A stretch of DNA of 64,000 nt from an uncultured Ulvibacter sp. (GTDB taxonomy: Bacteria > Bacteroidota > Bacteroidia > Flavobacteriales > Flavobacteriaceae), in NCBI GenBank assembly GCA_965367015.1, contig CBDUGY010000002.1, positions 30,432 through 94,431 of the forward strand, in the 5' to 3' direction. Below, piece after piece: positions 31,161-35,899 of this stretch (its first letter is position 1; every line of letters starts with the position of its first letter). The notes beneath the pieces were generated by a model. That model saw only the letters and a list, made by a program, of their open reading frames with translations, searched no databases and was not told the origin of the DNA. A program made the position numbers and the translations under genes.

Positions 31161-31511
31161 ATGGGAAAGAAACCAACACAAGAACCTGAAAAAGAGGCTG
31201 TCGATTCTGCTTCGAAAATTGAAGCAATTAAAAATCTTATTTTCGGAGAAAATATCGTTCAATACGATGGTGAATTTGAAACGATTAGAAAAGACCTTCA
31301 GAAGAAAAAAGAGGTGCTTGAAAACTACATCGATGAAGTTCGTAACGAACTTATGCAATCAATTGATTCTCTCAGTACCGACGTAAATATTAGAATTACT
31401 GATCTCGAACAAGCCTTACAAGAAAAGACCGATAAGCTTTCTGAAAAGAAAGTGGACAAAAAGGAACTAGGGAAACTCCTCATTAATTTAGGTGAAAAAA
31501 TAAGTTCGTAA
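31161..31511 (+). CDS. hypothetical coiled-coil protein, first gene of the GTPase/kinase cassette
   Basis: 116 aa, Lys/Glu-rich with heptad-like helical sequence and no TM segment. Its N-terminal motif IKNLIFGEN resembles LLRDILLIDD at the start of the next gene. Confidence 0.55.
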   Translation: MGKKPTQEPEKEAVDSASKIEAIKNLIFGENIVQYDGEFETIRKDLQKKKEVLENYIDEVRNELMQSIDSLSTDVNIRITDLEQALQEKTDKLSEKKVDKKELGKLLINLGEKISS

Positions 31512-31532
31512 TCGTTCTCATTAATACTGTTT

Positions 31533-32363
31533 ATGGTAAAAGATGATGATAAATTACAGCTTTTACGTGATATCCTGCTCATAGATGATAGGCAAGTTGC
31601 GCATGCCATAAACAAGCGAATAGAATTTATTACCGAAACTATTGAAAAGCGTGAAAAGCTTTCAGAAAAAATTGATCCAATAATAGATGATAAACTAAAT
31701 CAGTTTATTGCAGATATCCCCGCCACTTTAGGACCAACTATAACAAAAACTTTAAAAGAACAGATAGAAAATTCTAAAGATCAAGTGGTGGAGGCCCTTT
31801 ACCCTATTATGGGTAAGATGATAAAGCGGTATATCCAGAATGAGATCCGATTACTTTCAGAAAATATAAATAAAAAAGTAAATAATACTTTTTCGTTTAT
31901 TTCCTTCAAACGTAAAGTGCAAGCTCGGTTTACGGGAGTCAAGGAAAGTGATCTGATGCTTAGTGAGATGGACTCTCCTCAAATTAATGAAGTTTTTGTA
32001 ATCCAAAAGGGATCCGGTTTGCTCTTGGGCAACTATAGCAGTACTTACACTATGGATAAAGATATGGTGTCGGGTATGTTAACAGCGATTAAAAGTTTTG
32101 TTGAAGACGCTTTTGAAGGAGGAAATCAAAATCTAGAAGCCATCGAATACGAATTGTATACAATACATATTCAGAATTTTCATACATACTATATTGCCGC
32201 AGTTATATCAGGTACCTATAGTCGAAACTTTGAAAGTAAATTAGAAAATAAGCTGTTTAAGTTGTCGAAGAACTTATCCCCTAAAATATCCACCCTTACA
32301 CAAGATGCTATTGATGGTGTTTTGGAAGATTACTTTACAAAATGGAAATTACCAAGAAAATAG
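31533..32363 (+). CDS. hypothetical protein with helical N-terminal half and Roadblock/LC7-like C-terminal domain
   Basis: 276 aa. The C-terminal 100 aa or so (EVFVIQKGSGLLLGNYSS...MVSGMLTAIKSFVEDAF...IEYELYTIHIQNFHTYYIAAVISG...) shows the strand-helix-strand-strand pattern of Roadblock/MglB-type domains. The 3' end overlaps the GTPase gene by 22 nt. Confidence 0.5.
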   Translation: MVKDDDKLQLLRDILLIDDRQVAHAINKRIEFITETIEKREKLSEKIDPIIDDKLNQFIADIPATLGPTITKTLKEQIENSKDQVVEALYPIMGKMIKRYIQNEIRLLSENINKKVNNTFSFISFKRKVQARFTGVKESDLMLSEMDSPQINEVFVIQKGSGLLLGNYSSTYTMDKDMVSGMLTAIKSFVEDAFEGGNQNLEAIEYELYTIHIQNFHTYYIAAVISGTYSRNFESKLENKLFKLSKNLSPKISTLTQDAIDGVLEDYFTKWKLPRK

Positions 32364-32842
32364 TGCTTTTAGGCCAGTTTGGGGTGGGAAAGACTTCATT
32401 AGTACAAAGATTCATTAAAAATGAATTTACTCAAGATTATAGAACCACTTTGGGGGTGCAAATCGAGAAAAAAATTATCAACTTACCATCGGGCGCCACT
32501 CTTTCTATGATTATTTGGGATTTAGAAGGTTTTTCATCGGTGGATAAAACAAGATCATCTTACCTACTCGGCTCCAGTGCATTTATTCATGTTTTCGACC
32601 TAACACGCCCTGTTACTTATTCAAACTTACATGAAGAGATAAATTTTCTTAGGGTAAATTTTCCAAAAGTACTGTTACGCACTATTGGAAATAAGAGTGA
32701 TCAAAAAGACCCGGAATCGGTTGCAAATTACCTGAAGAGTAAAAATATAAATATTTATGGTTTTGTTAGCGCCAAAACCGGAGAAGGAGTAAATGAACTA
32801 TTTAAAGATATAGCATTAAACCTTAGCGACTATGAACATTAA
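32342..32842 (+). CDS. Ras/Rab-like small GTPase, paralogue 1
   Basis: 166 aa. G1 GQFGVGKTS, switch I TTLGV, G3 WDLEG, G4 GNKSD and G5 SAKTG, in canonical order and spacing. Confidence 0.85.
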   Translation: MEITKKIVLLGQFGVGKTSLVQRFIKNEFTQDYRTTLGVQIEKKIINLPSGATLSMIIWDLEGFSSVDKTRSSYLLGSSAFIHVFDLTRPVTYSNLHEEINFLRVNFPKVLLRTIGNKSDQKDPESVANYLKSKNINIYGFVSAKTGEGVNELFKDIALNLSDYEH

Positions 32843-33422
32843 AAGTTTTTTTTCAAACAAGGTTCAAGAAATTCATACGACTTTAGAAGGCAAGGTCACA
32901 GAAAGCAGTGATACGATATTTACTGTCGATATAGGAGAAAATATATACCTTTTACACCCATTTTTTGAAAGTCTAAAATCTGAATTGATTAATGGTGAAC
33001 ATGAAAGTCTTGCCTTTCCATGTGTACAATTGGAATTTAATGAGACAAAAGCAATATGTGATATTACCATAAAAATTGAACGTGGGTTTTTGGCAATTCT
33101 CTTATTTGATTATTCCGATCATTATGAAAATCTACACGAGGCCGCACAAGAGAAAAAAACGGCAATGTTAAATGAGCAGGCTTATGAATTAAATACTAAA
33201 TATTCAGAAGAGAAAAGAGCTTACTTTGAATACATCCGAGACCGTATTGACCACAAGATTATTAAAGAAATGCAGGATATTGTACTTCAAATTGAAGATT
33301 TAAAGAAAACGAAACTTTCATCAAAACAATATGCGTTATTGCATTCCATAGAAAGTAATATTGGCAACCTGCATTTAAAAGCAATCCAAATTAAAGAAGG
33401 ACTTGGTATTAAATTAGACTAA
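32832..33422 (+). CDS. sensor + DHp-like protein, an ATPase-less paralogue of the downstream histidine kinase
   Basis: 196 aa, colinear without gaps with residues 1 to about 205 of the kinase at 33949. Shared motifs are TIF, LHPF, FPCV.LE.N, FD[YF][ST]DHY and QEK. A His (codon 33252-33254) lies exactly 50 residues after the FD motif, as in the kinase H-box. The protein ends where the kinase ATPase domain would begin. The 5' end overlaps GTPase 1 by 11 nt. Confidence 0.6.
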   Translation: MNIKSFFSNKVQEIHTTLEGKVTESSDTIFTVDIGENIYLLHPFFESLKSELINGEHESLAFPCVQLEFNETKAICDITIKIERGFLAILLFDYSDHYENLHEAAQEKKTAMLNEQAYELNTKYSEEKRAYFEYIRDRIDHKIIKEMQDIVLQIEDLKKTKLSSKQYALLHSIESNIGNLHLKAIQIKEGLGIKLD

Positions 33423-33460
33423 AATTCTTTATAATTGTTCTCTAAACTCTTCGATAATAT

Positions 33461-33946
33461 ATGTCCATTTCAAAAAAAATAGTAATGCTTGGCCATTTTG
33501 GCGTGGGTAAAACCAGCCTCGTTCGCCGTTATGTAGATAGCGCTTTCAGCGAAGACTATTTAGTAACTATGGGTGTGCAGGTAAAGAAAAGGGAAATTGA
33601 GTTTCAAGGAGAAACTATAAAACTCATTATATGGGACATTGAAGGAAATACTTCGATTTCCAAAGCCAGAAAATCTTACCTATTAGGAGCTCAGGGCTTC
33701 ATTTATGTTTTCGACGTGACACGCCCGGAAACATTTGATAACCTCGCATCAGAAAAAGAATATTTGGAAGATAATTTTCCCTTAGTACCGGTTTGTGTAG
33801 TAGGTAATAAAAAAGATCTCATTGAACAAGACAATATTGAGAACTTTATAAAAGAAAAAACCTTCGAAAACTCGATTTTTGCAAGTGCCAAGACTGGTGA
33901 TAATGTAGAGAGAATATTCTTAGAAATCGTAACTAAAATATCGTAA
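33461..33946 (+). CDS. Ras/Rab-like small GTPase, paralogue 2
   Basis: 161 aa. G1 GHFGVGKTS, switch I VTMGV, G3 WDIEG, G4 GNKKD and G5 SAKTG. By eye, close to half the positions are identical to paralogue 1. Confidence 0.85.
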   Translation: MSISKKIVMLGHFGVGKTSLVRRYVDSAFSEDYLVTMGVQVKKREIEFQGETIKLIIWDIEGNTSISKARKSYLLGAQGFIYVFDVTRPETFDNLASEKEYLEDNFPLVPVCVVGNKKDLIEQDNIENFIKEKTFENSIFASAKTGDNVERIFLEIVTKIS

Positions 33947-33948
33947 GT

Positions 33949-35472
33949 ATGAAATTCTCAAAAATACGAGACGATATATATAACTCAAAAATACAAGTTG
34001 TTCAAATCAATGAAGAAGGTATTATAGAAGAGAGTGAAAATACCATCTTTAAACTTAAACAGAATACTGATATCACACACCTGCATCCCTTTCTAGAAGG
34101 GATTCAGCCACTCTTTAATAGCCATGAAGAGTCTAGAAGTGTTCAATTCCCATGTGTTAATCTAGAGATAAACGATAAACACATTGTTGCCGATATTCAC
34201 TTAATTAAAGATGGAAGTAATATCTTTTTAGTTTTTTTTGATTTTACTGATCACTACAAAGATTCACATCCCTTAATTCAGGAAAAAAACGAAGCGTCCA
34301 TTGCTAAGAATAAGCTTACGTTCGAACGAAATATTCTCATCGCGAAAGAAGAAATAAAAAATAATTTCATTGCCCACTTAAATCATGAGATAAGAAACCC
34401 ATTAAATAGTCTTCTAGGGTTTATGGAAATCTTGCGAAATACGAAGCTGGATTACGAGCAAAAGGAAACTCTTAATATAATGAACAAAACCGGAACACAT
34501 TTAAAGGTTTTGTTAGACGACCTCTTAGATATCTCAAGAATTGAAAAAGGAGAGACTGAAGTTCGAAATAGACCTTTCAGTTTAAGTCAGATATTGAATA
34601 ACTTACAAAAACATTTTCAACTTAAATATAATAAGACTAGAATCGATCTGACTATTGACTCGGAAAAGGAAGTTCCCATAAGGCTAATGGGAGATCCCAC
34701 GAGATTAAATCAGATAATTTACAACCTTATCGAGAATGCTTATAAAAACACTAGTGAGGGTACTATAAATATTAAAGTATCTTCCGAAAAAATAGATGAG
34801 GAAAAAGTTAATATTAATTTTACAATATCAGATACTGGACGCGGTATACCCGAGAAAGATTTACCAAAAATATTCGATTCGTATTACCAGCTGGAATTTG
34901 ACGAAACTATACCCCTTGGAGAAGGGCTCGGACTTAAAATTGTTAAAGAACTCACGCATTTGTTGAAAGGTAAAATAGGTGTAGAGAGTAAAGAAAATGT
35001 TGGTACTACATATAGCGTTAGTTTACCCTTTGCTCTTCGTGAAAAAAAAGAACGAAAACATAAGTCGGTACCAAAAGGCACAGGAATAATATTGAGCAAA
35101 AGAATATTGATTGCAGAAAACGATGAAATTAATCAAATGCTCTTAATGAAAACCTTTCTCGATAACGATCAGGGCTATTATATTGAAATTGCCAGAGATG
35201 GGCAACACGCACTGGATTTTCTTGAAAAAAGAAAATACGATCTTTTTCTGTTGAAAATGAAACTTCCCGATATTGATGGCTTAAAAATGATTTCTCTTAT
35301 AAGGAGTAATCCCAATCCAAAAATAAACTCAATCCCTATTCTTGTGGTTACAGGTAGCACCATGAAAAGTGAAGAGAAAGCAATTTTGAGCGGAGGAGCA
35401 TCCGCTTTTTTAGCTAAGCCGTATACCCAAAATGAACTGTTCAAAAATATTGATCAGCTCTTAAAGAATTAG
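33949..35472 (+). CDS. soluble hybrid histidine kinase (novel N-terminal domain, HisKA, HATPase_c, degenerate receiver)
   Basis: 507 aa with no TM segment. H-box HLNHEIRNPLNS (His codon 34384-34386), N-box YNLIENAYKNT, G1 DTGRGIP, F-box FDSYYQ and G2 GEGLGLKIV. The C-terminal REC-like domain (ILIAENDE...VVTGS...FLAKP) has Lys at the phospho-acceptor position. Confidence 0.85.
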   Translation: MKFSKIRDDIYNSKIQVVQINEEGIIEESENTIFKLKQNTDITHLHPFLEGIQPLFNSHEESRSVQFPCVNLEINDKHIVADIHLIKDGSNIFLVFFDFTDHYKDSHPLIQEKNEASIAKNKLTFERNILIAKEEIKNNFIAHLNHEIRNPLNSLLGFMEILRNTKLDYEQKETLNIMNKTGTHLKVLLDDLLDISRIEKGETEVRNRPFSLSQILNNLQKHFQLKYNKTRIDLTIDSEKEVPIRLMGDPTRLNQIIYNLIENAYKNTSEGTINIKVSSEKIDEEKVNINFTISDTGRGIPEKDLPKIFDSYYQLEFDETIPLGEGLGLKIVKELTHLLKGKIGVESKENVGTTYSVSLPFALREKKERKHKSVPKGTGIILSKRILIAENDEINQMLLMKTFLDNDQGYYIEIARDGQHALDFLEKRKYDLFLLKMKLPDIDGLKMISLIRSNPNPKINSIPILVVTGSTMKSEEKAILSGGASAFLAKPYTQNELFKNIDQLLKN

Positions 35473-35473
35473 C

Positions 35474-35899
35474 CTATTTTCTATTCAAGAGATAGCGATA
35501 ATCTTCGAGGTCTAAACCCCCGTCATAAATATCTATAGATCTTTTTATGAGTTTTTGCGCTAATTCTGTAGAATATCCAAGTCCGATTGCATACTTTTCA
35601 ATCAGAAATCGTTCATCATCATCGATATGATGATCAGCAAAAATCATTTCGAACAGATCGTGCATTCTCTCTAAACGTTTTTCCGCGGAATTTGGAGGAT
35701 TCATTGGATACTTCGTTGGATTTTTCAAAACATCAGCATATTCATCCTCATCGATATCTAACTTTCGAGCAAATCTCTTTAAAAGTTCCTCTTCTTTCGA
35801 ATTCAACGCTCCGTCTACCGAAGCCATATTTGCAATTGAAGCGAAATGACCAAGGTTTCTTTTATGTTCTCCGCTTTCAAATAAATCTGTAAATGACAT
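35474..35899 (-). CDS. TerB-family (tellurite-resistance-like) protein
   Basis: 141 aa with two TerB-like repeats (ASVDGALNSKEEELLKRFA; IFADHHIDDDERFLIEKYA). Its stop lies 1 nt from the kinase stop, in convergent orientation. Confidence 0.55.
   Translation of the reverse strand: MSFTDLFESGEHKRNLGHFASIANMASVDGALNSKEEELLKRFARKLDIDEDEYADVLKNPTKYPMNPPNSAEKRLERMHDLFEMIFADHHIDDDERFLIEKYAIGLGYSTELAQKLIKRSIDIYDGGLDLEDYRYLLNRK

Follow-up and report, generated by a model that had tools for sequence, protein, structure and literature searches.

A 64,000-nucleotide (nt) stretch of DNA from an uncultured Ulvibacter sp., a marine flavobacterium (GenBank assembly GCA_965367015.1, contig CBDUGY010000002.1, positions 30,432 to 94,431; referred to below as the window) contains six genes on the + strand, reading in the same direction between positions 31161 and 35472, that form one cassette by the layout of their open reading frames (ORFs). 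The cassette encodes two Ras/Rab-like small GTPases, here called Rup1 and Rup2, and directly downstream of each a protein with the same type of N-terminal domain (the N-domain): a short protein of 196 amino acids (aa) after Rup1 and a 507-aa hybrid histidine kinase after Rup2. By sequence comparison, the short protein and roughly the first 190 residues of the kinase are true paralogues. The genes, and the residues on which the argument turns, are the following.

31161-31511, + strand: cassette gene 1, a 116-aa helical/coiled-coil protein with weak coiled-coil-type Pfam matches only and a helical model
31533-32363, + strand: a 276-aa protein with long N-terminal helices and a predicted C-terminal longin/Roadblock-like domain, residues 150-250 or so (AlphaFold2 (AF2), Foldseek)
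32342-32842, + strand: Rup1, a 166-aa Ras/Rab-like small GTPase, the upstream paralogue (Pfam Ras, E=6e-26)
32832-33422, + strand: the 196-aa short protein, with a predicted PAS-like N-domain (residues 1-111) and a putative pseudo-DHp hairpin (residues 112-196; DHp, dimerisation and histidine phosphotransfer) (BLASTP, hhalign, AF2, Foldseek)
32865-32867, + strand: codon of Gln12 of the short protein, invariant in N-domain alignments
33252-33254, + strand: codon of His141 of the short protein, non-conserved in the orthologue alignment
33423-33460, no strand: 38-nt spacer between the short gene and the gene for Rup2, the sole real intergenic gap of the cassette
33461-33946, + strand: Rup2, a 161-aa Ras/Rab-like small GTPase, the downstream paralogue (Pfam Ras, E=1e-33)
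33949-35472, + strand: the 507-aa hybrid histidine kinase, with the PAS-like N-domain, HisKA, HATPase_c and a receiver-like domain (Pfam)
33994-33996, + strand: codon of Gln16 of the kinase (N-domain alignments)
34384-34386, + strand: codon of His146 of the kinase (HisKA), in the conserved H-box HEIRNPL
35254-35256, + strand: codon of Lys436 of the kinase receiver, replacing the acceptor Asp

The first-pass annotation of this DNA had proposed that a module of GTPase plus sensor protein is tandemly doubled here, and that the short protein is a paralogue of the sensor and DHp region of the kinase that ends before the ATPase domain. Both proposals were borne out. BLASTP aligned the short protein with the kinase over 184 aa at 30% identity (E=9e-21), a significant result for the pairwise check that had been suggested, and Rup1 and Rup2, at 48% identity (E=3e-55), are likewise paralogues. 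In profile-profile comparisons the N-terminal halves matched with 99.9% probability (E=1e-35), and the DHp halves alone matched in register (hhalign, 90%, E=1.5e-6). The short protein has no Pfam match to HATPase_c, as had been noted, and these two proteins hold the only copies of the N-domain in their genome. All of the listed shared motifs were found where they had been placed (short protein/kinase): TIF at 28/32, LHPF at 41/45, FPCV at 62/67, FD[YF][ST]DHY at 92/97, QEK at 106/111, the His at 141/146 and TKL at 160/165, the last lying 19 residues beyond the His in both proteins. The spacing from the Phe of the FD motif to the His is equal in the two proteins, as claimed, but it amounts to 49 residues and reaches the reported 50 only when counted inclusively. 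Similarly, the alignment is gap-free from FPCV to TKL but not overall, with one 1-residue indel between LHPF and FPCV (the offset is 4 through LHPF and 5 from FPCV on).

Pfam matched Ras/Roc in both GTPases. They share the motifs GxFGVGKT / WDxEG[F/N] / GNKxD / SAK, in which Ras Gly12 is replaced by Phe and the catalytic Gln of G3 is absent (conservation was read from three Rup groups of 18, 16 and 21 sequences). For Rup1 the motifs are GQFGVGKT (G1), WDLEGF (G3), GNKSD (G4) and SAK (G5), conserved in 18 orthologues, and the G3 motif of Rup2 is WDIEGN, also with no Gln. Ras-like GTPases lacking the G3 Gln and encoded in a conserved four-gene neighbourhood have been described as Group 1 Rup (Wuichet & Sogaard-Andersen, Genome Biol Evol 2014, PMC4316618). 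Besides the GTPase, the neighbourhood encodes a coiled-coil protein, another protein that has a domain of unknown function, and an output protein. The output is either a histidine kinase or a GGDEF/EAL protein, and its N-terminal region has an invariant Gln speculated to work in trans in the manner of a GTPase-activating protein (GAP) (PMC4316618). That description is computational, with no Rup characterised as of the 2014 survey (PMC4316618), and our literature searches returned nothing later on the Group 1 Rup system.

The cassette encodes GTPases that lack the G3 Gln, an output protein with a Gln-bearing N-terminal region, a coiled-coil protein and a second conserved protein, and on these features of its sequence we identify 31161-35472 as a Group 1 Rup small-GTPase signalling system. 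Gln12 and Gln16 are invariant in 32 N-domains drawn from both paralogues and in a second set of 25, and the shared N-domain corresponds to the invariant-Gln N-terminal region described for Group 1 Rup outputs. The 116-aa product matches, as its counterpart, the 'coiled-coil cytoplasmic protein' of Group 1 Rup neighbourhoods (PMC4316618); its gene kept its position in every related locus looked at, and the genes for the 116-aa and 276-aa proteins were present at every related locus inspected. The 276-aa protein matched no Pfam family, and its AF2 model is poor overall (predicted local distance difference test score (pLDDT) of 53), with values of 70-81 for the C-terminal ~100 residues. Foldseek matched this C-terminal domain to Mon1-Ccz1 longin domains, Rag C-terminal domains, Ragulator and MglB (E about 1e-4), making the protein a candidate platform for a guanine nucleotide exchange factor (GEF) or GAP. 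It is without the transmembrane helix and OmpA domain that are often seen in the second protein of Group 1 Rup systems elsewhere.

Like the published Group 1 Rup systems (PMC4316618), the cassette thus combines the coiled-coil protein, the second conserved protein, the G3-Gln-less GTPase and a Gln-bearing output, here a kinase. Unlike them, it has the Rup/output pair doubled and an extra output protein without an output domain. Two points are added to the earlier description by predicted fold, namely the PAS-like nature of the N-terminal region and the longin/Roadblock-like character of the second protein.

The N-domain had been called unassignable in the first-pass annotation. It is correct that no Pfam family matches it (for the Pfam PAS profile, there was no match at E<=1), but beyond its place in Group 1 Rup outputs it models as a PAS-like fold. 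An AF2 model of the short protein, computed from a 22-sequence alignment, had a mean pLDDT of 77.8. In the PAS-like core at residues 11-93 (pLDDT about 90), strands were placed at 11-16, 21-25, 59-69, 72-83 and 86-93, and helices at 38-54, a predicted layout that agrees with the five-stranded antiparallel sheet and flanking helices of PAS domains. The best Foldseek match in the Protein Data Bank (PDB) was 4gcz, the PAS(LOV)-linker-DHp-CA kinase YF1 (CA, catalytic and ATP-binding), over 220 columns, followed by PYP, HIF-2alpha PAS-B, phytochrome PAS and RpfR PAS (probability 1.0, E about 1e-4). A sequence search of the PDB gave no match at E<=1, and NCBIfam and Pfam returned nothing for the short family.

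The DHp-like helical hairpin that had been proposed for the short protein is present in the same model, as helices 95-158 (64 residues) and 164-188 joined by a turn of five residues, with pLDDT 65-79. Together with the hhalign match, the hydrophobic pattern supports a DHp-type two-helix hairpin: of the 26 positions that are hydrophobic in the kinase DHp, 16 have this character in the short family too when compared in register, and 4-12 in shifted registers. We take the helical half to be, by homology, a His-less pseudo-DHp hairpin related to the kinase DHp, with the dimerisation register retained. The parts that make a HisKA kinase are absent, as there is neither a conserved H-box phospho-acceptor His nor a HATPase_c domain, and 38 nt remain before Rup2.

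A search of 5.8 billion proteins collected relatives of the short protein in 85 clusters. Almost all are 188-202 aa long, and their sources are Ulvibacter, Aureisphaera, Marinirhabdus, Rasiella and flavobacterial metagenome-assembled genomes (MAGs); where named, they were called 'hypothetical protein'. At least 18 species encode an intact protein of 195-201 aa (50-72% identity), with the gene order unchanged. Invariant residues in the 22-sequence alignment all lie within the first 113 positions except Gln166, and include Q12, E13, G20, HPFFES at 42-47, F62-P63-C64, C76-D77, F92-D93-Y94 and H97-Y98. Compared with the nearest relative, the proportions of nonsynonymous and synonymous differences (pN and pS) were 0.153 and 0.898 for the short gene, the latter saturated, and 0.148 and 0.834 for the kinase; dS is saturated in this comparison for both genes, and pN and pS are therefore given alone, with no dN/dS. 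That pN is far below pS, with values near those of the kinase, shows that the short gene is under purifying selection. Among the same 16 genomes, mean pairwise identity of the N-domain was 67% in the short protein and 50% in the kinase, and that of the DHp or pseudo-DHp half was 51% and 71%, respectively. By this measure, selection after truncation has focused on the PAS-like domain, with the hairpin relaxed yet still constrained.

The first-pass annotation had also held that the short protein keeps the His while losing the flanking E-x-R-x-P-L of the H-box. The loss is real, with the kinase box F-[IL]-A-N-x-[SN]-H-E-[IL]-R-x-P-L replaced in the short proteins by Y-[IF]-[RK]-x-R-I-D-x-K-[IL]-[IV]. 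The retention of the His, however, is not a feature of the family: the column is His in the window and the nearest relative only, and is occupied by S/A/G/E/R/T/D/N/L in 20 other orthologues. The 22-sequence alignment has no conserved His in the helical half, and no HisKA or Hpt profile match was obtained for any of the 22 short-family members. Since His141 is not conserved, a phospho-His role is excluded as a function of the family.

A profile search with the N-domain among 1.84 billion representative proteins yielded 311 proteins, and in 150/150 of the matches listed the domain is at the extreme N-terminus. The architectures examined combine it with HisKA and HATPase, to which a receiver and Hpt may each be added. 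Other fusions (examples are among P0160, P0230, P0175 and P0222) place it on a SpoIIE/PP2C phosphatase or on a kinase with receiver and Hpt; the C-terminus of P0230 is LytTR-like by eye only, without profile confirmation. At least two other short forms have a degenerate H-box, P0197 (212 aa, His replaced by Asn) and P0123 (195 aa), and these may be independent truncations; many of the remaining short matches are kinase fragments at contig ends. The N-domain was found in 63/301 Flavobacteriaceae genomes (300 genera), most of them with a single kinase of about 505-520 aa, and a phylum-wide profile search found it in 3/301 genomes. At the sensitivity of the search, the domain is largely restricted to Flavobacteriaceae, with a few occurrences elsewhere.

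We annotated 46 related loci for gene order. In many genera the same chromosomal site has the order aspartokinase, GNAT, FBPase, the 116-aa protein, the 276-aa protein, a single Rup, a kinase and TerB, and the core of four genes was also seen in Cyclobacteriaceae. In the six-gene form, carried by at least 18 species from Ulvibacter, Aureisphaera, Marinirhabdus and MAGs, Rup1 and the short gene are inserted. Judged from this distribution, the four-gene form is ancestral. At the locus in the window, the TerB-family gene (35474-35899, - strand) converges on the kinase gene, and in most related loci it has the same place beside the cassette.

The junctions of the six-gene form preserve the ancestral arrangement on both sides. 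The gene for the 276-aa protein overlaps that for Rup1 (by 22 nt here), and Rup2 abuts the kinase. The junction of Rup1 and the short gene ranges from -8 to +2 nt across six-gene loci. The gap between the short gene and Rup2 is 38 nt here and 31-96 nt in 14 other six-gene loci, the other junctions being overlaps or abutments. Ancestral junctions kept on both sides, along with a lone gap after the short gene, fit a tandem duplication of the Rup-kinase pair followed by deletion of the upstream ATPase and receiver regions, and the 38-nt spacer is likely a scar of the lost CA and receiver (REC) coding sequence. A scan of the spacer found no terminator-like site. The promoter and terminator scan gave counts at the level of shuffled sequence, using a sigma-70 consensus that is not appropriate for Bacteroidota. 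In the phylogenetic trees the Rup1 clade had support of 100/99 and the Rup2 clade 96/98, and the short proteins formed one group (88/89).

Related loci also document later change. Five lineages (Halomarinibacterium, Aureitalea, G099 and two MAGs; loci L061-L064, L028 and L029) have lost Rup1 and carry a short protein cut down to the N-domain only, of 116-139 aa, with 132 aa conserved in three genomes; where Rup1 is gone, the hairpin is gone too. One member of the lineage, G260, has lost the module, and its 175-bp gap was searched and contained no remnant. In Ulvibacter antarcticus a third copy, limited to the N-domain and 127 aa long, is encoded between the short gene and Rup2 (L044:6740-7123); the Gln is retained in it and HPFF has become DPFF. 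In an uncultured Ulvibacter MAG (L060:5480-6620), Rup1 and the short gene are frameshifted, which reflects an assembly error or else a decaying module in that lineage. Three genera (G187, G256 and G229; loci L030, L031 and L032) have kinase-kinase tandems with no second Rup.

Phospho-sites were altered in the kinases as well. The Pfam domains of the kinase in the window are HisKA (137-201), HATPase_c (248-362) and Response_reg (386-501). The receiver lacks its acceptor Asp, replaced by Lys436, so that the 'hybrid' kinase carries what is by sequence a pseudo-receiver. The same change from Asp to Lys was found in all kinases of the duplication lineage, including those of members in which the short gene is truncated or lost, and the Asp is retained in single-module lineages. 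This lineage-wide change suggests that the pathway was rewired in the duplication lineage. Where two kinases stand in tandem, Asn occupies the receiver acceptor site of the downstream one, and in the upstream copy of G229 the H-box His is replaced by Asp. Duplication in this family has repeatedly preceded the loss of phospho-sites.

The reading that we favour, and consider probable, is that the short protein is a His-less, output-less and Rup1-coupled dimeric regulator of the same pathway, which arose by duplication of a Rup-kinase pair and truncation. The pair would have been duplicated in tandem in the lineage from which Ulvibacter, Aureisphaera and Marinirhabdus descend, and the upstream kinase copy would then have shed its ATPase domain, its receiver domain and its phospho-acceptor His. 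What was left would be a conserved protein of ~196-200 aa, composed of the PAS-like Gln-bearing domain and a His-less hairpin of DHp type. Each Rup would address the N-domain protein encoded directly downstream, Rup1 the short protein and Rup2 the kinase. The short protein would then be a non-catalytic dimeric adaptor whose PAS-like domain reads the nucleotide state of Rup1, and the kinase branch could be tuned either by pairing of the pseudo-DHp with the kinase DHp or by competition for shared upstream components.

Several points weigh against this scenario. Its mechanistic steps are drawn throughout from gene order and homology. A duplication within the lineage gave the best tree, with weak support (76/29), and an older duplication with reciprocal loss, in which the short clade is grouped with the G115 and G231 kinases, was not rejected by the approximately unbiased (AU) test (p=0.43); for the Rup tree, duplication within the lineage was marginally tolerated (AU p=0.088). 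N-domain-only proteins survive without Rup1, meaning that the domain can work without 'its' GTPase. With regard to the pairing variant, paralogous kinases usually evolve away from DHp heterodimers.

Among the other explanations, the one that fares best is that the short protein is a stand-alone GAP or effector of Rup1, for example a homodimer giving Gln12 in trans, with targets outside the cassette and the kinase untouched; we regard it as a serious possibility, albeit not the one we would choose. The invariance of Gln12, the missing G3 Gln of the Rups and the in-trans role already proposed for the Gln (PMC4316618) speak for it. It would also fit the higher conservation of the N-domain in the short protein than in the kinase, the translational coupling of Rup1 and the short gene, and the occurrence of the same N-domain on SpoIIE/PP2C and on the LytTR-like C-terminus recognised by eye. 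However, the cassette already has a protein of longin/Roadblock type, a classical GAP/GEF fold, and the short protein has no output domain for signalling elsewhere. The pseudo-DHp is also still constrained (51% identity, register kept), which suggests a role beyond that of a tether. Moreover, to our knowledge no GAP with a PAS fold has been described.

Alternatively, the short protein may be a decoy or buffer that titrates Rup-GTP (Rup1 and/or Rup2) or shared upstream proteins off the kinase and so sets a threshold, which strikes us as rather unlikely. An interaction domain kept while all catalytic parts are gone is what such a decoy would look like, and the N-domain-only forms that persist without Rup1 must act on the remaining Rup or on upstream proteins; the extra copy in Ulvibacter antarcticus points the same way. 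On the other hand, at least 18 species have retained the full-length form along with a Rup1 of its own that has diverged from Rup2 (48% identity), which argues for a dedicated pair, and a dimerisation hairpin would be superfluous in a pure decoy.

Two further explanations were rejected as very improbable. A role as phosphotransfer or phospho-acceptor partner of histidine phosphotransfer (HPt) type, which the first-pass annotation had raised, draws on the exact, in-register alignment of His141 with the phospho-His146 of the kinase, but founders on the lack of a conserved His in the orthologues, the replacement of the E-x-R-x-P-L box in all short proteins and the missing HisKA or Hpt match. That the short ORF is a functionless, decaying remnant of a duplicated kinase could be argued from the frameshifted MAG and from the lineages that shortened the gene further or lost it, but is contradicted by the conservation of the gene across its 85 clusters and at least 18 species, by its low pN (0.15 vs pS 0.90) and by a short-protein N-domain that is more conserved than that of the kinase.

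Several known systems resemble parts of this arrangement. The actinobacterial conservons consist of the CvnA kinase, the Roadblock protein CvnB, CvnC and the GTPase CvnD, and similarly encode a small GTPase of the Ras superfamily, a Roadblock-type protein and a histidine kinase as one unit. Unlike the Rup cassette, however, they have a GTPase of the MglA family and a membrane-bound kinase with a HAMP domain, and they have neither a PAS-like Gln-bearing N-domain nor an output-less kinase paralogue. In the RetS-GacS pair, a kinase-like protein blocks another kinase by DHp-DHp contacts. By analogy, the short protein may be a kinase-family protein that modulates a true kinase via dimerisation helices rather than by phosphotransfer, but RetS, which has a periplasmic sensor, is a hybrid kinase of full length, and the short protein lacks both the ATPase and the receiver domain. 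DivL is a pseudo-histidine kinase in which the phospho-His is replaced and the ATPase domain retained; the short protein could likewise be a kinase-derived scaffold without acceptor His, kept for protein-protein signalling, although of the kinase it keeps only the sensor and the DHp-like hairpin. The predicted PAS core, long coiled-coil linker and helical hairpin also recall the 'short' PAS/LOV proteins and YF1 (4gcz). The short protein differs from them in its low sequence identity (~11%), in lacking flavin-binding residues and an ATPase domain, and in matching no Pfam PAS family.

The Group 1 Rup system itself was already known from its computational description, and what is new here is, on the sequence comparisons, a duplicated, output-less kinase paralogue within it. 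Among bacterial proteins, Rup GTPases stand closest to eukaryotic Rab/Ras/Rho, and neither the 2014 survey nor our literature searches reported a characterised member, GAP, GEF or effector. As a small, soluble protein that would consist of the Rup-linked domain and a hairpin only, with its own dedicated GTPase, the short protein may be seen as a natural dissection of the system, and it offers a handle on whether the Gln-bearing domain is a GAP or effector partner of bacterial Ras-like GTPases. More broadly, the system can reveal how a GTPase switch may be wired to two-component signalling. In a more specific version, which we consider improbable, the N-domain would be a new GAP/effector domain that gives Gln12/Gln16 in trans, and a pseudo-DHp/DHp heterodimer would pass on the state of Rup1. 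If this were true, two Ras-like switches would converge on one kinase with a disabled receiver.

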